A program made the position numbers and the translations under genes. The notes under the pieces were generated by a model. That model saw only the letters and a program-made list of their open reading frames with translations, did no database searches and was not told the DNA's origin. DNA of 32,000 nt from Tannockella kyphosi (GTDB lineage: Bacteria > Bacillota_I > Bacilli_A > Erysipelotrichales > Coprobacillaceae), in the NCBI RefSeq assembly GCF_021054785.1, contig NZ_CP088239.1, positions 900,001-932,000 on the forward strand, read 5' to 3'. Below, in pieces: positions 1,820 through 32,000 of the stretch (position 1 is its first letter; every line of letters begins with the position of its first letter).

Positions 1820-2107
1820 ATGTTAACAGGAAAACAAAAAAGATATTTAAGAGCTCAAGCTCATAATTTAAATGCTATTTTCCAAATTGGAAAAGAAGGG
1901 GTGCATCAAAATCAAATCAAAGGAATTATGACAGCCCTAGAAAACAAAGAACTAATTAAAATTAAAATTTTAGAATCATGTGCACAGTCTAAAAATGAAG
2001 TAGCCTTAGAAATAAGTATGCAAACAAAAGCAGATGTAGTTCAAATTTTAGGAAGAACCATTGTTTTATACAAACCAAGTCCAGAGAAAATTATTAAATT
2101 ACCTTAA
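1820..2107 (+). CDS. yhbY: YhbY/CRS1-type RNA-binding protein (B. subtilis YqeI homolog)
   Basis: 95 aa. The N-terminus LTGKQKRYLRAQAHNLNAIFQIGKEGV is typical of the YhbY family. Position in the operon is conserved. Confidence 0.85.
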   Translation: MLTGKQKRYLRAQAHNLNAIFQIGKEGVHQNQIKGIMTALENKELIKIKILESCAQSKNEVALEISMQTKADVVQILGRTIVLYKPSPEKIIKLP

Positions 2108-3207
2108 TGAAAATTGGTATCTTAGGTGGATCATTTGATCCAATTCACTTAGGTCATATCGATTTAATTACATATGCAAAATCAGCGTTACAATTAGATC
2201 GAATATTACTTATTCCTACTGGCAATAACCCTTGGAAAGAGGGGAGTTATGCAACGGATGAACAACGTTTAACAATGCTTCATATTGCGACTCGGAAAGA
2301 TAGTGATATTATCATTGAAACAATGGAATTAGAAGATAATGAAACAAAGAATTATACTATAAACACATTAGAAAAATTACAAAATAAATACAAAGATGAT
2401 ACTCTTTATTTAATAATGGGTATGGATCATGTTGAAAAGTTTCACTTATGGAAAAAAGCATCAAAAATTAGTGAATTAGTAAATTTAGTAGCCTTCCATC
2501 GAGGGGGATATCAAACATATCATGAAAATCTTGATAAATATCATTTTATCTTATTAGATAAACCAGCTCTTGAAATCTCAAGTAGTGCTATTCGAAATGG
2601 TGACACTAACTCTTTAGATAAAAAAGTTCGTAGCTATATTTTTAATAATGGAATTTATTTGGATACCGTGATTGCTAGTAAAATGTCTAAAAAAAGATAT
2701 GAACATAGTGCATCAATGACAAATATAGCAGTGAAAATTGCTGAAAACAACAATGTTGATACAACAAAAACATATGTTGCAGCTATGTTTCATGATATTG
2801 CAAAAGAATTAGATAAAACAGAAGCAAAGAAATTAATGAAAAAGCATTATCCTGAATATCTAGAAAAAGCACCTGTTTTATACCATCAATGGTTAGGGGC
2901 TTATCTAGCAAAAAAACAGTATGGTATAAAGGATAAAGAAATTTTAGAAGCTATTTGTAGTCATACAACTGGTAGTACGACAATGTCTAAGTTAGCTAAA
3001 TGTATTTATGTAGCTGATAAATATGATCCTTATCGTGGTTATGACTCAAGCAAGGAAATAGCTTTATGTATTAGTGATATTGATGCAGGATTTAGACAAT
3101 GCTTGATTGATTTTTATGAATATTCTAAAAAAGAGAATAGACCAATTGATCAATCATTTTATGAAATATATAAAATATATGTAACTAAAGGAGAAGAGAA
3201 TGAATAA
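2107..3207 (+). CDS. nadD: Fusion protein: nicotinate-nucleotide adenylyltransferase NadD (N-terminal, about 190 aa) + YqeK HD-domain Ap4A hydrolase (C-terminal)
   Basis: GGSFDPIHLGH (HxGH) and ISSSAIR (ISSTxxR) NadD motifs. These are followed in the same frame by the YqeK-type HD domain (RYEHS...MFHDIAKE...SHTTG...VADKYD). Confidence 0.9.
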   Translation: MKIGILGGSFDPIHLGHIDLITYAKSALQLDRILLIPTGNNPWKEGSYATDEQRLTMLHIATRKDSDIIIETMELEDNETKNYTINTLEKLQNKYKDDTLYLIMGMDHVEKFHLWKKASKISELVNLVAFHRGGYQTYHENLDKYHFILLDKPALEISSSAIRNGDTNSLDKKVRSYIFNNGIYLDTVIASKMSKKRYEHSASMTNIAVKIAENNNVDTTKTYVAAMFHDIAKELDKTEAKKLMKKHYPEYLEKAPVLYHQWLGAYLAKKQYGIKDKEILEAICSHTTGSTTMSKLAKCIYVADKYDPYRGYDSSKEIALCISDIDAGFRQCLIDFYEYSKKENRPIDQSFYEIYKIYVTKGEENE

Positions 3208-3544: not shown

Positions 3545-4259
3545 TATGGCTTATGAGAAATTTGCGTATTATTATGATAGCTTAATGGATGAATCTTTTT
3601 ATGATGATTATTATACATTTATAAAAGAAAATGCTAAATATAACTCTATTTTGGAACTTGCTTGTGGAACTGGAGAATTAGCGATCCGTTTTAGCAAGGA
3701 TAACAAAGAAATTTATGCAACGGATATTTCTAAAGATATTTTAGAAGTAGCAAGAATAAAAGCAAATCATGAAAACGTAAATCTCTTACTTGCTAGAATT
3801 GATATGGTTGATTTTAAAATCGACAGACCTGTTGATTTGGTTTTATGTTCGTGTGATTCCATTAATTATGTCCTAAATACAAAAGATGTTACTCAAGTTT
3901 TTAAAAATGCTTATCAATCATTAAAATATAATGGTCATTTTATTTTTGATGTAAATAGTATGCACAAAATGAATGTTACATTAAATAATTATGTGGAGCA
4001 TAATGAAGATGAAGATTTTGTTTTTGATTGGAAAGTATCTTCTATTGGAATAGGCAAAGTGAAACATGAAATTTATATTGAAGATAAGATTGAAAATGAG
4101 AAGGTTAGTGAAACTCATATTCAACAAAGTTATGATGTTGATAAGTATGTTAAGTTATTAAACAAGGCTGGGTTTAAGGATATTGAATTATTTAGTGATT
4201 TTGGAAAATATAAAGAGGAATGTCAAAGAGTGATCTTTGTATGTAAGAAAGGAAGATAA
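3537..4259 (+). CDS. Class I SAM-dependent methyltransferase (YqeM-like)
   Basis: Motif I ILELACGTGELA. The size and the position after rsfS match B. subtilis yqeM. The start could instead be ATG 3546 (MAYEKF...). Confidence 0.8.
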   Translation: MTNMAYEKFAYYYDSLMDESFYDDYYTFIKENAKYNSILELACGTGELAIRFSKDNKEIYATDISKDILEVARIKANHENVNLLLARIDMVDFKIDRPVDLVLCSCDSINYVLNTKDVTQVFKNAYQSLKYNGHFIFDVNSMHKMNVTLNNYVEHNEDEDFVFDWKVSSIGIGKVKHEIYIEDKIENEKVSETHIQQSYDVDKYVKLLNKAGFKDIELFSDFGKYKEECQRVIFVCKKGR

Positions 4260-4261
4260 TA

Positions 4262-4954
4262 ATGATTGCAATTATTGGAGCTATGAGTGAAGAAGTAGCA
4301 GCTATTAGAGAATATTTAAATGATAGTAAAGAAATAATGTTACAAAACAATCCAGCATGGATTGGGAATGTTGCTGGTAAAGAAGTAATTGTATTACAAG
4401 GTGGTATTGGAAAAGTTAATACTGCTATTGTATGTACTTCATTATTTATCGAATATCCTCAAATAAATATTGTCTTGAATATTGGTTCAGCAGGAGGATT
4501 ATATACTTCTCAAAAAGTAGGAGATGTTGTTATTTCTTCTAAAGTAGTACATCATGATGTTGATGTTAGAGGATTTGATTATCCATTAGGACAAGTACCT
4601 GGAAGCTCTTTGTATTTTGAGGCAGATAAAGCACTAGTAGGACTGGCACAATCAGTTTTAAACAAAGAAGAATTAAAGGCTTCTATTGGTATTATTGCAT
4701 CAGGAGACCAGTTTATTTTTGAAAAGCAACAAGTGGAAATGATACAATCTAATTTCCCTGAAGCACTATGTGCTGAAATGGAAGCTGCTACAGTAGGGCA
4801 TGTATGTAGTAATTTTAACAAGAGATTTATTATTGTACGTTCATTAAGTGATGTCTTTGGTGGTGAACCTTCAAATATTCAATTCAATGAATATTTAGAG
4901 ATTGCTAGTAAAAACTCAGCAAAATTGTGTGTTGCAATTATTCAACAATTATAA
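4262..4954 (+). CDS. mtnN: 5'-methylthioadenosine/S-adenosylhomocysteine nucleosidase
   Basis: MIAIIGAMSEE N-terminus, GIGKVNTA, and the SGDQF...AEMEAA motifs typical of Pfs/MtnN. Confidence 0.9.
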   Translation: MIAIIGAMSEEVAAIREYLNDSKEIMLQNNPAWIGNVAGKEVIVLQGGIGKVNTAIVCTSLFIEYPQINIVLNIGSAGGLYTSQKVGDVVISSKVVHHDVDVRGFDYPLGQVPGSSLYFEADKALVGLAQSVLNKEELKASIGIIASGDQFIFEKQQVEMIQSNFPEALCAEMEAATVGHVCSNFNKRFIIVRSLSDVFGGEPSNIQFNEYLEIASKNSAKLCVAIIQQL

Positions 4955-16294: not shown

Positions 16295-17455
16295 ATGTTA
16301 AAATCAAAAGTAGGGTATAGCAGTTTAGATGATGCAAAAGCAGCAGGGAAAGAAGCTGCATTAATGGCAAAAGGTAGTGAATCAGAAACAAAATTAGCTT
16401 ATGTATATTGTTCATGTGCATTCGATGTAAAAGAAGTATTACATGGTGTTGCAGAAGTATTACCAACATGTTCATTAGTAGGTAATACATCATTTACTGG
16501 TGTAGTAACACCAGGTGGATATATTGGTGGAGATACTCCATTTGTTGGAATAATGACAGTTGGTAGTGAAGAAATGAGCGTTGGAACAGCAATTGTGGAA
16601 GCTAGTGACTGTGCTTATAGTGCAGGTGTGAAATTAGCACATGATGCAATGAGTGCAGCTGGAAAAGATGTAGCTCCTAAATATTTCTATATGGTTGCTT
16701 CTCCTAAAGAAGAAGAAGATTATTTAAAAGGTATTAGTAGTGTTATTGGTAGAATTCCATTTTTTGGAGGATCTGCAGCAGATAATAGTATTGCAGGAGA
16801 ATGGTCACTATATGAAGGAGAAACAGTAATTTCAGATGGTTGTGCTGTTGCATTTGTTTATGATGCTCCTGATATGGATAATAAATTCTCTGATGCATAT
16901 AAAGAAACAGATGATTATGGAGTTATTACTAAAGTTGAAGGTAAACGTGTCTTAATGGAAATTGATGGAAAACCAGCATGTGAAAAATACATGGAATGGA
17001 CTGGATGTTCTAAGGAAGATGTTAGTGGTGGTAACTTATTAGTAACTACTATTACTTCACCTTTAGGAGTGAAAGATAGATTAGGGGACTTAACTGCAAT
17101 TAGACATCCAATGAATGGAAATGAAGATGGTTCAATGAATATTGGTAATAATTTAGCAGAAAAAACTTGTATTATTCGTATGGAAGCAACTATTGATGAA
17201 TTAATTAGTTCTGTTGAAACAACTTTACAAGAATTATTAGATGGATTAGATCATAAACCTAGTGCATTACACTTAGTTCATTGTGGTGGTAGACGTGCTG
17301 GTATCGGAGATAGAATTGGAGAAGTTGCTGATATCGTTGCTAAAGTAGCAGGAGATATTCCTTATATTATGGAATTTACATTCGGTGAATATGGATTTGT
17401 AAGTGATGAAAATAATACATGTGGTGGATTAATGTTGTCGTTTACAGCATTATAA
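16295..17455 (+). CDS. Stand-alone FIST-domain protein (FIST_N + FIST_C), function unknown
   Basis: 386 aa, Gly/Ala-rich, with FFGGSAADNS and a C-terminal HCGGR...EF.FGE pattern typical of FIST proteins. No output domain. SD AAAGGAAGG. Confidence 0.65.
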   Translation: MLKSKVGYSSLDDAKAAGKEAALMAKGSESETKLAYVYCSCAFDVKEVLHGVAEVLPTCSLVGNTSFTGVVTPGGYIGGDTPFVGIMTVGSEEMSVGTAIVEASDCAYSAGVKLAHDAMSAAGKDVAPKYFYMVASPKEEEDYLKGISSVIGRIPFFGGSAADNSIAGEWSLYEGETVISDGCAVAFVYDAPDMDNKFSDAYKETDDYGVITKVEGKRVLMEIDGKPACEKYMEWTGCSKEDVSGGNLLVTTITSPLGVKDRLGDLTAIRHPMNGNEDGSMNIGNNLAEKTCIIRMEATIDELISSVETTLQELLDGLDHKPSALHLVHCGGRRAGIGDRIGEVADIVAKVAGDIPYIMEFTFGEYGFVSDENNTCGGLMLSFTAL

Positions 17456-17477
17456 AATAATAGAAAGAGGATAAGAT

Positions 17478-18914
17478 ATGAAAATGATTATAAACGGACT
17501 TGCAGTAGAAGCAAGTGATGGAAAAACTATTGATGTAATTAACCCTGCAACTGGAACAGTTGTTGACACAGTGCCATCTGCAACTATTGATGATATCAAT
17601 AGTGCAGTAGCTTGTGCTAAAGAAGCTCAAAAAACTTGGGCAAAAGTGCCAGTACATGCACGAGTTGATATTATGATGAAGTTCTTAACATTCGTAGAAA
17701 GAGATAAAGAAGTATTAGCAAAAACATTATCAGATGAAACTGGTAAAACTATTACGGAAGCTCGTGGTGAAATCGGAAATATACCAATCGCTTTTAAAGC
17801 TTTTAGTGAAAAAGCAAAACATTTATATGGAGAAGTAGTAGGGCCTGGATTAGAAGCCGGACAAGAAACAAATATTTTATTTACACAACGTGAACCAATT
17901 GGTGTAGTTGCATGTGTTATTCCTTTCAACTTCCCTTGTGATTTATTTGACCAAAAAGTTGCACCAGCACTATTAAGTGGGAATGCAGCAATAGTAAAAC
18001 CAGCAACAGACAATCCATTGACTTTATGTATGTTAACAGCATTATTAGTAGAAGCAGGTGTAACTCCTGGTGCTATTGAAGTGGTTACAGGTAGAGGATC
18101 AGTAGTAGGTGGTGTCTTATGTTCTCATCCAGATGTTCATTTAGTAACATTAACAGGATCAACAGAAGTTGGTATTGAAACAGCTGTAAATTGTGCTAAA
18201 AACTTAACACATACAGCATTAGAATTAGGTGGAAATGATGCATTTATCGTATTAGAAGATGCTGATGTTGAATTAGCTGCTTCTGAAGTGATTTGGGGAC
18301 GTATGTATAATACAGGTCAAGTATGCTGTGCTTCAAAACGTTTCTTAGTGCATAGTTCTAGAGTAGAAGAATTTACAACAAAAGTGATTGAAAAAATATC
18401 TGCATTAAAATTAGGAGTTCCTAGTGATGAAACTTCACAACTTGGATGTCTAATTAGCGAAAAAGCAGCAATTGAAATAGAACAACAAGTAAATCTAACA
18501 GTAGAACAAGGTGGAACTATTCTATTAGGTGGAAAAAGATCAGGTGCTTTCTATACACCTACAGTAATAGGTAATGTTCCTAAAACTGCAGATGTAGCCA
18601 AAGATATGGAAATATTTGGACCAGTTGTACCAATTATTTCATTTGAAACTGTTGAAGAAGCAGTAGAAATAGCAAATGCATCAATTTTCGGATTATGTGG
18701 ATGCGTATTTTCTGAAAACTCTAAAACAGCTATGAAAGTAGCATATGCATTAGAATGTGGAGGCGCAGTAATTAATGGTGCAAGTTTCTTCCGTTCATTC
18801 GAAATGCCATTTGGAGGATATAAATTCTCTGGATTAGGTACAGAAGGTGTTATGAGTACATTTGATGAAATGACAAGAACTAAATCAGTAGTATTAAAAA
18901 ATATATTAGGATAA
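17478..18914 (+). CDS. NAD(P)-dependent aldehyde dehydrogenase
   Basis: ELGGND (catalytic Glu) and GQVCCASKR (catalytic Cys). The FNFP and GSTEVG motifs are present. 478 aa. Confidence 0.9.
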   Translation: MKMIINGLAVEASDGKTIDVINPATGTVVDTVPSATIDDINSAVACAKEAQKTWAKVPVHARVDIMMKFLTFVERDKEVLAKTLSDETGKTITEARGEIGNIPIAFKAFSEKAKHLYGEVVGPGLEAGQETNILFTQREPIGVVACVIPFNFPCDLFDQKVAPALLSGNAAIVKPATDNPLTLCMLTALLVEAGVTPGAIEVVTGRGSVVGGVLCSHPDVHLVTLTGSTEVGIETAVNCAKNLTHTALELGGNDAFIVLEDADVELAASEVIWGRMYNTGQVCCASKRFLVHSSRVEEFTTKVIEKISALKLGVPSDETSQLGCLISEKAAIEIEQQVNLTVEQGGTILLGGKRSGAFYTPTVIGNVPKTADVAKDMEIFGPVVPIISFETVEEAVEIANASIFGLCGCVFSENSKTAMKVAYALECGGAVINGASFFRSFEMPFGGYKFSGLGTEGVMSTFDEMTRTKSVVLKNILG

Positions 18915-18990: not shown

Positions 18991-19018
18991 ACTTCGCATA
19001 ATGTATGTTATGTTATAA
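18991..19018 (+). other. dif: dif-like XerC/XerD chromosome dimer resolution site
   Basis: ACTTCGCATAA TGTATG TTATGTTATAA. By hand it is 22/28 identical to E. coli dif and 19/28 to B. subtilis dif (both recalled from memory). It lies in the convergent gap where gene orientation switches, 1.3 kb from xerD. Confidence 0.75.
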
Positions 19019-21239: not shown

Positions 21240-21800
21240 TTAAACAAGATATACTCTTGAAATGATAGATAGAATAAAAAGTAATAAGATAACAATAAAA
21301 TAATCTAAGAAATAATTAATAATGATACTACCTTTAAAGATATCATGACTAACAAATGAAACCTTAAACACATTCACTGATAAAGATAAACATAACATAG
21401 AAACAATCAATACAATTACTATTTCTAGTAGTATTTGTGGTAAAACACCTAAAATAAATAGTTCAAAAGATAAACCATTAATAAATAGATTGTAAATTGA
21501 AAAAGATACTTGAATTCCTTTTGAATAAATAATAAAAGAATTTAATAGTACTCCCATATAGCTAGTACTAGCTAAAAAAGATAAAAAATAATAAAAAAAA
21601 CTAATTAAAATATATGTATTTTGATTATCTATATACACTTCTCCACTGATATAAAATAGTTGTCCAAATAAATCAGGTAATAGATTATTGGATCTAGTAT
21701 AAAAATATACACCAAATAAAAATCCAAAAACAAACAATGTTAAACTATACACAAAAACAATATGATTTAATCCTTTTGATATAAATCTAATAATTTTCAT
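21240..21800 (-). CDS. spoIIM: SpoIIM-like polytopic membrane protein
   Basis: 186 aa, about 5 TM segments. Its position upstream of xerD-deoB matches B. subtilis spoIIM-(fur)-ripX-drm. The family call rests on synteny and topology only. Confidence 0.5.
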   Translation of the reverse strand: MKIIRFISKGLNHIVFVYSLTLFVFGFLFGVYFYTRSNNLLPDLFGQLFYISGEVYIDNQNTYILISFFYYFLSFLASTSYMGVLLNSFIIYSKGIQVSFSIYNLFINGLSFELFILGVLPQILLEIVIVLIVSMLCLSLSVNVFKVSFVSHDIFKGSIIINYFLDYFIVILLLFILSIISRVYLV

Positions 21801-23167: not shown

Positions 23168-23977
23168 TTAAAATAAATTATTTTTACGTGCATTTATTGT
23201 TTTGTGTTCTAAACGTAGCTTATCTGCAATCATTGCAATAAACTCTGAATTAGTAGGCTTCGATTTTGTAGCACTGACTGTATACCCAAATATTTCATCG
23301 ATTGCATCCGTATTTCCTCTATTCCATGCTACCTCGATAGCATGACGAATTGCTCTTTCCACTCTTGAAGAGGTTGTACTATAGTTTTTTGCAATATTAG
23401 GATATAAGACTTTTGTTACTTGTCCTAGCAGTTCAATATTGTAATAGGTTGATAATATCGCAGTTCTTAGATACATATAACCTTTTATATGAGCAGGAAT
23501 ACCTACTTCATGTAGAATTTCTGTTATTTCATTTTCAATTTTAACTTTTTGATACTTTGTTGACTCTTCTTGATTTTCTCTTGAAACATGTAATGTTTTT
23601 GAATTAGTAGTCATTACTTTTAAAGTCATTGTAACAAAACTTTGTAAGTCAAAAGGCATTTTAAAACAATAATCAACATTTAATTTTTCTAAAGAATCAC
23701 ACATGATTGGGTTTAAAAAATTTGTTATACATATTAATTTTCGATATGCATTAGGATTTACCTCTTTTAATTTGGTAATTACTGTAATTCCATCTATGTG
23801 CGTTAACATAAGGTTTGTAATAAATAAATCGATTTGATTTTTAGCTAAATCATTTAAACACATCGTTGAATTAGTACTACTCCCTACTACTGTAAAATGA
23901 CTATTTTCTAAGACTTCTTGCATTCTAACTAATAATTCTTTGTTTTCTTCTAAAATGTAAACTTTATATTTTTCCAT
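23168..23977 (-). CDS. spo0A: Spo0A-family sporulation master regulator with a degenerate receiver domain
   Basis: The C-terminal domain is near-identical to the Spo0A signature ([16 protein letters not shown]...[15 protein letters not shown]...[19 protein letters not shown]). Start at ATG 23977 (MEKYKV) behind GGAGGA. Confidence 0.9.
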
Positions 23978-24129
23978 AATCTTCCTCCGTTTTATCCTCA
24001 CCAACACGTTTATTATATAATTTACATATTCCTATTTTTAATACTTTTCATTGATTTGACATCTTTTTTGTTTAAAACGAATTATTAATTAATATAAACC
24101 TAAATATTCCAACAAATTATTTACTATAA

Positions 24130-24136
24130 TGTCGAA
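24130..24136 (+). promoter_or_regulatory. Consensus 0A box (TGTCGAA) upstream of spo0A
   Basis: Exact match to the 7-bp Spo0A binding consensus, 153 nt upstream of the spo0A start in the divergent intergenic region. Confidence 0.35.
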
Positions 24137-28846: not shown

Positions 28847-30025
28847 TTATGAAATATGAACAATATAGGATATAATATAAATAGCAGCAACAAATATAGA
28901 ATAAATCATTAAAGTATGTAGTTTTTTTCTTTTTATTTTAATAGGCTTATTTTCACAAGTATAATCATACAATTCAGACAATTGAATTGTTTCTACAAAT
29001 TCAAGTTTACGATCATAATCTAATTCTATTAAATCAGTTGGTTTCACCAAAGTTTCGCATTTTTCAAAATAATTTAAACCAACACTAGCAAGTAAATTAT
29101 AAACAAATTGACTACAAAACATAATATTTGCCTTATATGTTTTATTCAAAGCCAAACCAACAAGATTATAAGCACTACCCTCTTGATTTATTTGTTTTAT
29201 TTTATTAATCATCTCTTGTTTTTGTTGTTTCGATGTAGGTAAACGGTAAACACGAATAGAAGCATCATCTTTTTTACAGAAATACTTGATAATCTCAGGA
29301 TTCAATCCTGGTGGCGTTACTTTCTGTCCACCATTATAACTAATCAACGTTTTTAAATCTTTATCAAAAGCAATCGATGCATGATTATATGGTTTATTAG
29401 TAAAAACTCCAATAACATCAGAAGTAATACTACCTGTATCAGATAAAACAATATATACATAATCATCATCCAAAGATTTATCTAAATTACTCGTGTATTC
29501 ATCACTTAAAGAATCAAAATTTAAATACTTATTAATACTATTTCTAGGAATTTCATCCTTCAATTCATAGAAAACTTCTCTATTAATTACTCTTCCTGCT
29601 TTTTCTAAAGAACTAGCTTTTTCTCGAACTAACTGAGACAAAATACGAGCATCTTCAAATGATAAACATGTATCATCAATTGTATGAAAAATATACTCTT
29701 TATTTTCTTCATTAATTATATAATATTCACAGGTAAAAGAAAGTAATAACAGTAAAATTGAAACTATTGTATTCAGTGTATTCCATTCGAAAAAGAAAAT
29801 AAAAAACACTTGTATAACTAAAATAGTCGTTTGAGCAAATACACCAATAACTATTTGGGATCTTTTAGAATACGTATTAAATACATTAAACACTAAAATA
29901 CACGCTATAAAAACATATAAGATAGTATGTAAAGACATATTAATATAACGATCTTGGACAGCTACAATAAATATAATAGCAAATAGTAATAAAAAAGACT
30001 CAAAAAACTTTTTGAAAGAAATCAT
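28847..30025 (-). CDS. Membrane-anchored protein with a permuted papain-like (YiiX/YaeF, peptidase C92-like) domain
   Basis: About 4 N-terminal TM segments and 1 C-terminal TM. The soluble domain has His before Cys: TNKPYNHASIAF ... YKANIMFCSQFVYNLL, as in the permuted NlpC/P60-type C92 family. Start moved to ATG 30025 behind AAAGGAG. Confidence 0.55.
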   Translation of the reverse strand: MISFKKFFESFLLLFAIIFIVAVQDRYINMSLHTILYVFIACILVFNVFNTYSKRSQIVIGVFAQTTILVIQVFFIFFFEWNTLNTIVSILLLLLSFTCEYYIINEENKEYIFHTIDDTCLSFEDARILSQLVREKASSLEKAGRVINREVFYELKDEIPRNSINKYLNFDSLSDEYTSNLDKSLDDDYVYIVLSDTGSITSDVIGVFTNKPYNHASIAFDKDLKTLISYNGGQKVTPPGLNPEIIKYFCKKDDASIRVYRLPTSKQQKQEMINKIKQINQEGSAYNLVGLALNKTYKANIMFCSQFVYNLLASVGLNYFEKCETLVKPTDLIELDYDRKLEFVETIQLSELYDYTCENKPIKIKRKKLHTLMIYSIFVAAIYIISYIVHIS

Positions 30026-30059
30026 AGTTGGTCTCCTTTCTTTTATAAACTGCTTTATC

Positions 30060-30088
30060 ATTATAACTCACTGTTGTATAGATGTAAA
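30060..30088 (-). promoter_or_regulatory. Near-consensus sigma-70 promoter of the C92-like gene
   Basis: Minus strand: TTTACA - 17 nt - TATAAT. Confidence 0.6.
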
Positions 30089-30120: not shown

Positions 30121-30889
30121 AATTATCGAATAAATCTTGTGTTTCACTAGAAGTTAACTGGATTATTTCATAAAAATATTCTTTTTGTGTTTTATTCCCT
30201 CTTTCCAATTGAGCTGCAATTTTCCCATCTTTTATAAACAATAACTTAGATGAATAAGAAGCAATTTGAGCATCATGACTAACCATTACAATCGCTAGAT
30301 TATTTTCATTATTCATTGTCTTTAACATAGACAGAAGATCGTGAGAATTTTTGCTATCTAAATTACCTGTTGGTTCATCTGCGATAATAATTTTAGGATT
30401 GGTAACTAAAGATCTACAAATGGCTGCTCTTTGTTTTTGACCACCAGAACATTCATTAGGGAATTTATGAAGCAAATCACTAATCATTAATTTATCCGTA
30501 TATTCTTTTACTAATGTTTCAATATTATTGATTGATTTCTTTTGTAATGATAAAGGAGTAGCAATATTTTCGTAAATAGTTAATGACTCAATTAAATTAT
30601 AATTTTGAAATATAAAACCTAATTTCTCATATCTAAACTTCCCTATTTCTCTTTCACTCATTAACTTTATTTCTTTACCATCAATCTTTAAAATACCTTT
30701 ACTAGGTTCATCAATCGTAGAAATATTATTTAATAAAGTAGATTTACCAGAACCAGAAGGACCCATAATACATAAAAAATCACCCTCATATACAATCAAA
30801 CTAACATCACTAAGTGCTTCTAAAGCATGATCTGTATTTTCATTATATATTTTTGTAATATTCTTAGCATCAATTAATATTTTATTCAT
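30119..30889 (-). CDS. ABC transporter ATP-binding protein (MacB/BceA type)
   Basis: Walker A GPSGSGKST, signature SGGQKQR, Walker B IIIADEPTGNLD. Overlaps the upstream permease gene by 8 nt. Confidence 0.9.
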   Translation of the reverse strand: MNKILIDAKNITKIYNENTDHALEALSDVSLIVYEGDFLCIMGPSGSGKSTLLNNISTIDEPSKGILKIDGKEIKLMSEREIGKFRYEKLGFIFQNYNLIESLTIYENIATPLSLQKKSINNIETLVKEYTDKLMISDLLHKFPNECSGGQKQRAAICRSLVTNPKIIIADEPTGNLDSKNSHDLLSMLKTMNNENNLAIVMVSHDAQIASYSSKLLFIKDGKIAAQLERGNKTQKEYFYEIIQLTSSETQDLFDN

Positions 30890-32000
30890 AAACTTCTCCT
30901 TTTACTTTGATATTAACAGTTCGATTATATAAGTACATTGTAACAATCATGGATAAAAGTGATGGAAATACATAAAATAGGATTAAAGAAAATAACATCT
31001 TTGTACTTAATCCACCTGCTATCACAAATTTTAAACCTATTATTAAAATATAAGGTAATGGCATTACTAAAATAGTTCCATAAAATATCATAACTTCTTT
31101 TATAATCATATTTTTACGCTCTTGATAAATATAACCAATCTTTGCCATCGCAATAAACTCACCTTTTCGTAAAACAACAAGATCACAAAACTTACATACA
31201 AGCCCAACAATAATAAGAATAACAATGGATATGTAACTTAAAATAGCAGTGAAGTATTCATTTGATGAAGGATCTTGACCTATTAAAATAGGTACTAATA
31301 AAGTAATCAAACAAAGCATTAACATACTCATAATAATAGTCCCTTGCATTGAAACACAATAATTACTAAAAGGGATAAAAGAAAATGGTTTTTCAAGAAG
31401 TTTCTTCAAATTTAACTGACGAACCACCTTAGGAATAACTTGTTTAATAATCCCATACATTGCAAAAGAACCAAGAAAAGTAGGAACAACATATGCTACA
31501 GCATAATGTTCTTGGAAAACAATACTAATCAAAGCTGCAAAGTATATAAAAATATAAACTGGTGTTTTTATTTTAGTATCTTTTATTATTGTACCACTTG
31601 CTTTTTCTGTTCTTCCTAACAATACTTGAATTGTGTTTCGATGTGAAAACCCGGCAATTGATATCATAATAGTCATTATAATAGGAATAATAGTGAAACT
31701 ACATCCAAAATAAGTAGAAAAAGGAACATGATAGACAATATTAATATTAAGATATTGATACATAATGGTATATAACTGATTTAATGCGATAGTTCCTAAT
31801 AAAAAGGATAAAGGTATTGTAATAATTAAGATAACAGTAATTTGACAAGCTACATATAAAACAACATCAATAAAAGTCCCCCCACTAATATAGATTAGTG
31901 CAAACTCTTTGACTTTTTTATTCAAATAATAATCACTAGCATATAATATCATCACCCAACAAATACAAATAATTAAAAAAGGTAAACCAATTGACAATGG
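30882..32000 (-). CDS. FtsX-like ABC transporter permease (BceB type), C-terminal part; the ORF is still open at the right window edge
   Basis: Polytopic membrane protein directly upstream of, and translationally coupled to, the BceA-like ATPase. The M at 31997 in the ORF track is a TTG, and the frame stays open to position 32000. Confidence 0.75.
   Translation of the reverse strand, partial: PLSIGLPFLIICICWVMILYASDYYLNKKVKEFALIYISGGTFIDVVLYVACQITVILIITIPLSFLLGTIALNQLYTIMYQYLNINIVYHVPFSTYFGCSFTIIPIIMTIMISIAGFSHRNTIQVLLGRTEKASGTIIKDTKIKTPVYIFIYFAALISIVFQEHYAVAYVVPTFLGSFAMYGIIKQVIPKVVRQLNLKKLLEKPFSFIPFSNYCVSMQGTIIMSMLMLCLITLLVPILIGQDPSSNEYFTAILSYISIVILIIVGLVCKFCDLVVLRKGEFIAMAKIGYIYQERKNMIIKEVMIFYGTILVMPLPYILIIGLKFVIAGGLSTKMLFSLILFYVFPSLLSMIVTMYLYNRTVNIKVKGEVYE

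Follow-up and report, generated by a model that had tools for sequence, protein, structure and literature searches.

An aspartate-less Spo0A in Tannockella kyphosi: a sporulation regulator probably switched without the classical phosphorylation signal

We analysed a 32,000-nucleotide stretch of the chromosome of Tannockella kyphosi, a fish-gut bacterium of the Erysipelotrichales (Coprobacillaceae; RefSeq assembly GCF_021054785.1, contig NZ_CP088239.1, positions 900,001 to 932,000 of the forward strand). This whole stretch is called the window in what follows, and positions are counted from its first letter. It carries a gene for Spo0A, the master regulator of sporulation, in which the phospho-acceptor aspartate of the receiver domain is replaced by an asparagine (Asn55). 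The standard textbook case of a phosphorelay which gates a developmental decision is Spo0A~P. To our knowledge, every Spo0A studied so far is phosphorylated on aspartate, kinase or phosphorelay input is taken as universal for entry into sporulation, and the models established for Bacilli and Clostridia all begin with the phosphorylation of one Asp. As in an entire clade of related bacteria not yet cultured, the gene described here has an Asn at the acceptor position, and it is clearly kept by selection. Hence, the switch that it encodes is probably independent of the classical phosphorylation signal. What is new is the presence of an aspartate-less receiver (ALR) in the sporulation master regulator, the ALR class itself being known. 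With an isolate in culture and its genome complete, T. kyphosi allows the question to be tested directly.

The gene lies on the reverse strand (23168-23977), and its open reading frame of 269 codons gives a protein of 269 aa which is 100% identical to WP_249030377.1 of T. kyphosi. It is a true Spo0A orthologue, as had been claimed in a preliminary description of the window made from its letters alone: the NCBIfam equivalog model TIGR02875 is matched with 260.4 bits (cutoff 200) over model positions 2-260 of 262, and the Pfam model Spo0A_C (PF08769) with 147 bits over the full 104 positions. The DNA-binding and transactivation domain described by the latter (residues 151-254; 23216-23527, reverse strand) shares about 70% of its residues with the solved Bacillus domains, and matches 1lq1 and 1fc3 with E = 3.6e-53. 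The receiver (REC) domain (residues 1-123; 23609-23977, reverse strand) is recognised as such by Response_reg (PF00072), with 38 bits (gathering threshold 30.2) over residues 6-115. In an AlphaFold (AF2) model of the protein built from 64 homologues, this domain is predicted to adopt the (beta-alpha)5 fold with five strands (residues 4-9, 28-34, 49-55, 78-85 and 103-106) and five helices, at a predicted local distance difference test score (pLDDT) of 90-96. Foldseek superposes it on the Spo0A receivers 5wq0 and 1qmp with a template modelling (TM) score of 0.86-0.90 and a root-mean-square deviation of 1.5-2.1 A. We place the start of the gene at the ATG at 23977, and not at the GTG at 24007, because GGAGG is found 8 nt upstream of the former and because all the homologues begin with MEKYK; the spacing and the shared N-terminus together rule out the GTG.

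We aligned the receiver by HMMER with the solved Spo0A receivers of B. subtilis, G. stearothermophilus and Paenisporosarcina (9phz, 1dz3/1qmp and 5wq0). These alignments have no gaps around the site; they place Asn55 opposite the acceptor Asp (Asp56 in B. subtilis) and Glu10 and Glu11 opposite D10 and D11. The codon of Asn55 is AAC (GTT on the plus strand, 23813-23815), and in the AF2 model this residue is the last one of beta3, where a phosphorylatable Asp is expected. The only Asp residues nearby are D50, at the beginning of beta3, and D62, in the universal DG motif. The model and the alignments to solved receivers rule out that some other Asp closes beta3. The two substitutions, D56 to N55 and D10 D11 to E10 E11, had been read in the preliminary description from an alignment made by hand; both of them are borne out, including against a structure-based alignment, which reveals no genuine Asp at the end of beta3. 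Since the acceptor Asp is an Asn, canonical control by phospho-Asp is impossible for the receiver as encoded. The change from Asp to Asn takes one G-to-A change. The residue directly before the acceptor position is Thr54 (codon ACA, 23816-23818, reverse strand).

A canonical phosphorylatable receiver has five active-site residues, namely DD, D, T and K (PMC12632262). In the T. kyphosi receiver the acidic pair after beta1, which binds the metal and which is DD in Bacillus, consists of Glu10 and Glu11 (GAA GAA, 23945-23950, reverse strand, in the beta1-alpha1 loop): it is acidic but not made of Asp, and the same pair is found in Asp-type spore formers. The Thr or Ser expected at the end of beta4 (residues 78-85) is Thr85 (ACA, 23723-23725, reverse strand), which is Thr or Ser in 14 of the 14 Asn-type proteins, so that the conserved Thr is indeed retained, as first proposed. 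For the Lys, also said to be retained, the picture is mixed. An invariant Lys does exist at the end of beta5, but it is Lys106 of the sequence Lys106-Met107-Pro108 (23654-23662, reverse strand) and stands, throughout the clade, one residue ahead of the canonical K-P site; it is Met107 which aligns with the K-P lysine of the solved Spo0A receivers.

The asparagine is not a sequencing error. The NCBI protein has it, as do UniRef and an independent metagenome contig from Logan, and it recurs in 13 further distinct homologues; independent assemblies and 14 distinct sequences thus agree, and on this point too the first assessment was right. Among the homologues considered here, which are the best 120 of 8000 Spo0A matches, the acceptor column holds Asn in 14 distinct sequences and Asp in 105. 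The receivers of the Asn-type homologues are 36-87% identical, and in one related cluster all nine of the nine members have Asn at this position. The acceptor codon is AAT or AAC in all nine other Asn-type loci for which DNA is available, and GAT in one further locus, L024. Ten positions (E10, E11, N12, D50, D62, G63, T/S85, Y103, K106 and P108) are kept in every one of the 14 Asn-type proteins. Thr54 is found in 11 of these 14, compared with 2 of the 105 Asp-type homologues, both of which are nested in the Asn clade; the independent Asn-type lineages have Cys (P0018), Ile (P0069) or Leu (P0110) instead of Thr.

Close relatives were compared by means of a tree of the neighbouring genes dinB, xerD and drm. 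In it, all the Asn-type loci fall into a single clade (81% bootstrap), within which the window pairs with its closest relative, L022 (100% support), though an Asp-type locus is found inside this clade. This locus, L024 (protein P0011, spo0A at 2002-2811), has a GAT codon and a Val in place of Leu56; it groups with the Asn-type locus L023 (100% support), and the pair is nested inside further Asn-type loci (98% support). Because of this nesting, its Asp most simply reflects a reversal from Asn to Asp. Elsewhere, an Asn-type protein (P0069) and an Asp-type one (P0554) share one cluster at 90% identity. In the Spo0A tree, P0110 represents an Asn-type lineage apart, and the Asp-type P0021 stands beside Asn-type proteins, with weaker support. 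Taken together, the trees and clusters show that Asp and Asn have been interchanged at the acceptor position more than once, at least three times, on short time scales and with no further effect that can be seen.

The preliminary description had given weight to the change from DD to EE as well, and here we disagree with it. In the Erysipelotrichales set, the first acidic position may be Val, Ile, Glu, Met, Asp or Ser and the second one Glu or Asp; EE, or more degenerate pairs such as VE, ID and ME, are spread across the homologues of this order, Asp-type ones included. In Thomasclavelia spiroformis, T. cocleata and T. saccharogumia, EE occurs together with the acceptor Asp; the literature lists T. 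spiroformis, along with T. ramosa, among the characterised spore formers. Because Asp-type, spore-forming Thomasclavelia carry EE too, the pair is, on this comparison, a trait of the clade and not part of the change in the T. kyphosi lineage. The idea that the EE pocket disables phosphorylation in this lineage specifically is ruled out, as the pocket is common to Asp-type spore formers. The lineage-specific change therefore comes down to a single transition from Asp to Asn, plus Thr54.

The displaced Lys (K-x-P) and a frequent Val, Ile or Met at the first acidic site are seen in the whole Erysipelotrichales Spo0A family, Asp-type spore formers among them. Judged from these alignments, Spo0A of the Erysipelotrichales as a whole seems to have a non-canonical active site in its receiver.

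Both domains of Spo0A are under purifying selection. We calculated pairwise ratios of nonsynonymous to synonymous divergence (dN/dS, or omega) by the Nei-Gojobori method; since dS is near saturation (0.65-1.5), the values of omega are approximate. In pairs of Asn-type loci, omega amounts to 0.11-0.21 for the receiver, and it is 0.01-0.04 for the C-terminal domain; between the window and L022 the two values are 0.16 and 0.025. The neighbours dinB, xerD and drm give 0.06-0.19. When dN of the receiver is divided by the mean dN of these three flanking genes, one obtains 0.59-0.94 for Asn-type pairs versus 0.83-0.98 for Asp-type pairs, at equal divergence of the flanks. This rules out a relaxed selection on the receiver, which is therefore no less constrained after the loss of the Asp. 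The possibility, left open in the preliminary description, that the protein might be non-functional does not survive the purifying selection on both domains, the fixation of Asn in the clade and the constraint on spoIVB and spoIIIAH in the relatives. The other part of the same interpretation fares better: as far as the encoded Asn is concerned, independence from phospho-Asp is likely.

The regulatory DNA of the gene is conserved as well. A perfect 0A box (TGTCGAA, or TTCGACA on the other strand) is found at 24130-24136 on the plus strand, 153-159 nt before the start of spo0A; it is the only perfect one in the window, where 1.95 are expected over the whole length. The same heptamer stands at -159 in L022, in surroundings which have diverged, and at -147 in L023, L024 and L025. 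Closer to the gene, a block on the reverse strand (23984-24017) comprising TATAAT (24012-24017), the 5' leader and the GGAGG ribosome-binding site (23984-23988) is nearly invariant in seven aligned loci. The conservation of the box and of the leader fits a continued DNA binding and autoregulation by Spo0A.

Sporulation-specific genes are maintained alongside the Asp-less Spo0A in Asn-type relatives, as can be seen from the intact and constrained spoIVB and spoIIIAH of four of their loci. In L023, L025, L026 and L027 the gene order is efp-spoIIIAH-asp23-nusB-xseAB-ispA-dxs-rrmJ-recN-spoIVB-spo0A-dinB-(SpoIIM-like)-xerD-drm, which is Bacillus-like. SpoIVB is intact there (334-341 aa), has the GMSGSP motif and evolves with an omega of 0.15-0.32; SpoIIIAH has an omega of 0.09-0.35, the housekeeping gene recN of the same loci having 0.21-0.41. 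In L002, recN and spoIVB are found about 4 kb upstream of spo0A. The locus L028, which belongs to the Asn-type relative P0019, contains (4206-4565) a gene for the spore protein Cse60 and a DUF1540 gene, 5.5 kb upstream of spo0A. Both genes add to the evidence that Asn-type genomes have held on to genes associated with sporulation.

In the window itself, the downstream block spo0A-dinB-spoIIM-xerD-drm is conserved. The only other gene of a sporulation family seen in the window belongs to this block: a divergent SpoIIM-family gene (21240-21800, reverse strand), which matches PF01944 with 31.5 bits (gathering threshold 26.9) and NCBIfam TIGR02831 with 20 bits against a cutoff of 100, so that its assignment to SpoIIM is weak. 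The upstream side has been rearranged, in the window as in L022, and now carries an HD protein, MarR and transporters.

The reading which we favour, and to which we give somewhat better than an even chance, is that of a functional Spo0A with an ALR, the receiver being kept as a regulatory and dimerisation module. The C-terminal domain would bind 0A boxes as it does in Bacillus. The receiver would be retained as a folded module for regulation and dimerisation, no longer switched by phospho-Asp. What sets the activity may then be the amount of Spo0A, which would regulate its own synthesis via the 0A box in front of its gene, or an input to the receiver other than a phosphoryl group (for example a ligand or a partner protein), or both. 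We infer all three of the elements on which this scheme depends: phosphorylation independence, autoregulation, and sporulation as an output which still persists.

Several points weigh against this scheme. The rest of the active site (EE, T85 and K106) is perfectly conserved in the Asn-type proteins, which would fit a continued phosphoryl chemistry too, and the values of omega suffer from the near saturation already mentioned. The recN-spoIVB-spo0A linkage is lost in the window and in L022. A search with the SpoIVB of L023 gave no T. kyphosi protein among its 120 best matches, a list ending at 47% identity, which is about the level expected. T. kyphosi has reportedly been described as non-spore-forming, and its chromosome of 2.26 Mb lies near the bottom of the range for spore formers.

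Alternatively, sporulation could have been lost in T. kyphosi specifically and the Asp-less Spo0A repurposed for other regulation, as in the many non-spore-formers which encode Spo0A, with the same molecular mechanism and a different output. The lost linkage, the missing SpoIVB match and the size of the chromosome all speak for this, and so does the SpoIIM-like gene, which is faster on the branch of the window (omega 0.29 with L022, against 0.14-0.22 elsewhere). Yet the loss of a linkage is not evidence of the loss of a gene, because in most of the Thomasclavelia loci fetched recN and spoIVB are not seen upstream of spo0A, while Thomasclavelia SpoIVB proteins do exist. Nor can the SpoIVB search be read as an absence, because a control search with RecN likewise missed T. 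kyphosi: Thomasclavelia variants at 57% identity filled its listed matches, which did not reach this species, the lists being too crowded to prove that a gene is absent. Moreover, the gene of the SpoIIM family remains intact and under constraint, and the 0A box and the leader are conserved. We consider repurposing unlikely, while keeping it in mind as a serious alternative.

A covalent switch could also have been preserved in another form: Thr54 would be phosphorylated instead, or Asn55 would become an Asp by post-translational deamidation and serve in the normal way. This is suggested by the invariance of EE, T/S85, Y103 and K106 in 14 of 14 Asn-type proteins, and by the fact that Thr54 arose together with Asn55 (the 11 of 14 against 2 of 105 given above, both of the latter nested). 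CheY D57N is reportedly activated by phosphorylation at the adjacent Ser56. But Thr54 is absent from the independent Asn lineages P0018, P0069 and P0110, and all eight other Asn-type representatives found in a wider search (see below) are hydrophobic at -1, which weakens Thr54 as a general alternative acceptor. The residue which follows the Asn is a Leu, a context in which deamidation is slow, and this weighs against the second variant. Deamidation of an Asn receiver back to a phosphorylatable Asp has nevertheless been reported (PMC4395418). For a covalent switch in general, it is a further difficulty that the canonical Lys position is not occupied by Lys. All in all, such a switch seems to us rather improbable.

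Two other explanations have very little left in their favour. A second, canonical Asp-type Spo0A might be encoded elsewhere, the Asn-type protein being its non-phosphorylatable partner or antagonist, through competition for 0A boxes or through heterodimers; the matches seen are the best 120 of 8000, which leaves some room for it, but in four loci the Asn-type gene is found at the ancestral place of spo0A (recN-spoIVB-spo0A-dinB), and only one Spo0A cluster named T. kyphosi is found among the matches listed, so that we regard a second copy as very improbable. That the loss of the Asp killed the regulator and left a decaying or inactive relic with an open reading frame not yet disrupted, as might be thought from the B. 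subtilis D56N mutant, which is said to be non-phosphorylatable and Spo-minus, is equally far-fetched and is rejected by the selection data (omega of 0.01-0.04 and 0.11-0.21 for the two domains, equal to that of dinB, xerD and drm), by the residues invariant in 14 Asn-type proteins, by the intact frame in 14 lineages and by the conserved promoter, leader and 0A box.

The wider search was an exhaustive one, made with HMMER over 1.84 billion cluster representatives, and gave about 109 Spo0A representatives (at 50% identity) which were full-length and well aligned. Their acceptor column contains 8 Asn (P0377, P0397, P0398, P0432, P0433, P0462, P0491 and P0498), 6 Glu (P0395, P0441, P0443, P0459, P0470 and P0477), 1 Gly, 1 Ser and 1 Tyr (the last three being among P0410, P0429 and P0451). 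About 16% of the representatives, from unrelated lineages, are thus without the acceptor Asp, in a count where orthologues and paralogues are not told apart. The residue before the acceptor is hydrophobic in the eight Asn-type ones, with Ser or Thr in none of the eight. Those which are named come from metagenome-assembled genomes of Erysipelotrichaceae and Lachnospiraceae, and several are found on many contigs. Because of this share, we conclude that Asp-less Spo0A is, as far as such alignments tell, recurrent in uncultured Bacillota. A literature search found no paper describing an Asp-less (ALR) Spo0A, and in a survey of ALRs Spo0A appears only as a laboratory example of an Asp-to-Glu change (PMC4395418).

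A natural Spo0A which cannot be phosphorylated at the acceptor position and is under normal selection, with constrained spoIVB and spoIIIAH beside it in the relatives, suggests that another route of activation exists. One may go further and propose that in a gut clade of Coprobacillaceae Spo0A launches the formation of endospores without any aspartyl phosphorylation and that, by extension, the same could be true of about one sixth of Spo0A clusters (those with Asn, Glu, Ser, Gly or Tyr), the kinase or phosphorelay input having been replaced repeatedly; even the Asp-type proteins of the Erysipelotrichales, with their degenerate pocket and shifted Lys, may not depend on it. We put this forward tentatively and, on balance, rather doubt it in its full extent. 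The matter also bears on the prediction of sporulation ability from the presence of spo0A, which is routine for gut metagenomes.

Other features of the window deserve to be recorded. A dif-like site, ACTTCGCATAATGTATGTTATGTTATAA, is found at 18991-19018, in a 187-nt gap between convergent genes; it coincides with a change of sign of the GC skew (from +0.21 to -0.18) and with a flip of gene orientation from plus to minus. It resembles the dif site of E. coli, GGTGCGCATAATGTATATTATGTTAAAT; the B. subtilis dif consensus has no match in the window, and the dif-like site is absent from the related loci compared. Replication probably terminates in this region, at 1.3 kb from the gene of the xerD-like recombinase and 4 kb from spo0A. 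At 2107-3207 (plus strand), within a cluster yqeH ... rsfS - methyltransferase, a 366-aa open reading frame joins a cytidylyltransferase-like part (NadD-type) to an HD domain, and looks like a fusion of nadD and yqeK, which are adjacent in Bacillus. Two frames on the reverse strand, at 28847-30061 (404 aa) and 30882-31997 (371 aa), flank the gene of an ABC ATPase; they have no Pfam or NCBIfam match and are possibly novel permease components. A stand-alone FIST-domain protein adjoins an aldehyde dehydrogenase and an IclR regulator at 16295-18914 (plus strand), and just past the right end of the window (L029, 3492-6008) a FIST-EAL protein lies beside a GGDEF protein. A 21-kb metagenome contig reached via the ABC ATPase contains GGDEF, EAL and FIST genes and no sporulation genes.

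Finally, the T. kyphosi protein may be compared with known systems. It has the same two-domain architecture as the Spo0A of B. subtilis and G. stearothermophilus (TIGR02875; PDB 1qmp, 1dz3, 9phz, 1fc3 and 1lq1). According to the fold-search alignment, the C-terminal domain is about 70% identical to theirs and hardly differs in the region of the recognition helix; the T. kyphosi protein retains N12, E14, T85 and the aromatic switch residue, and there is likewise a 0A box upstream of the gene itself. The relatives of T. kyphosi also keep the recN-spoIVB-spo0A synteny, whereas spoIVB and recN are not adjacent in the window. The differences in the protein are the replacement of Asp56 by Asn55, that of DD by EE, and the displacement of the active-site Lys by one residue (K-x-P). 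The Asp-type Spo0A proteins of Thomasclavelia (formerly Clostridium ramosum, spiroforme, cocleatum and saccharogumia) and of other Coprobacillaceae are closer, being 67-70% identical overall. They share with T. kyphosi the EE pocket, K-x-P and the leader sequence, and differ by the acceptor Asp and by a hydrophobic Ile, Leu or Val, not Thr, at -1.

Among response regulators at large, the nearest counterpart is RitR of Streptococcus pneumoniae, which, like other ALRs or pseudo-receivers (ChxR and HP1043 among them), has a receiver recognisable by PF00072 and without the phospho-Asp. RitR has Asn53 at the acceptor position and Glu9 at the first acidic position, and works without phosphorylation; Asn is found in 16% of ALRs, where it is the second most common substitution (PMC4395418). 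RitR differs from the T. kyphosi protein by its output domain, which is of the OmpR type instead of Spo0A_C, and by the lack of the second acidic residue and of the Thr, whereas EE and T85 are retained here. By the definitions of ALRs, pseudo-receivers and atypical response regulators in use (PMC4395418, PMC12632262), T. kyphosi Spo0A is an atypical response regulator with an ALR, for which a phosphorylation-independent activity is predicted. Turicibacter, a spore former placed in the Erysipelotrichia, has no orthologues of Spo0F, Spo0B and KinA-E (PMC13492147). This context fits the reading of an ALR Spo0A. The same substitution at the same structural position has been made in the laboratory: the acceptor mutants B. 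subtilis Spo0A D56N, CheY D57N and NtrC D54N are reportedly loss-of-function or weakly active. Unlike in these engineered proteins, the Asn of T. kyphosi Spo0A is natural, fixed in its clade and under normal purifying selection.

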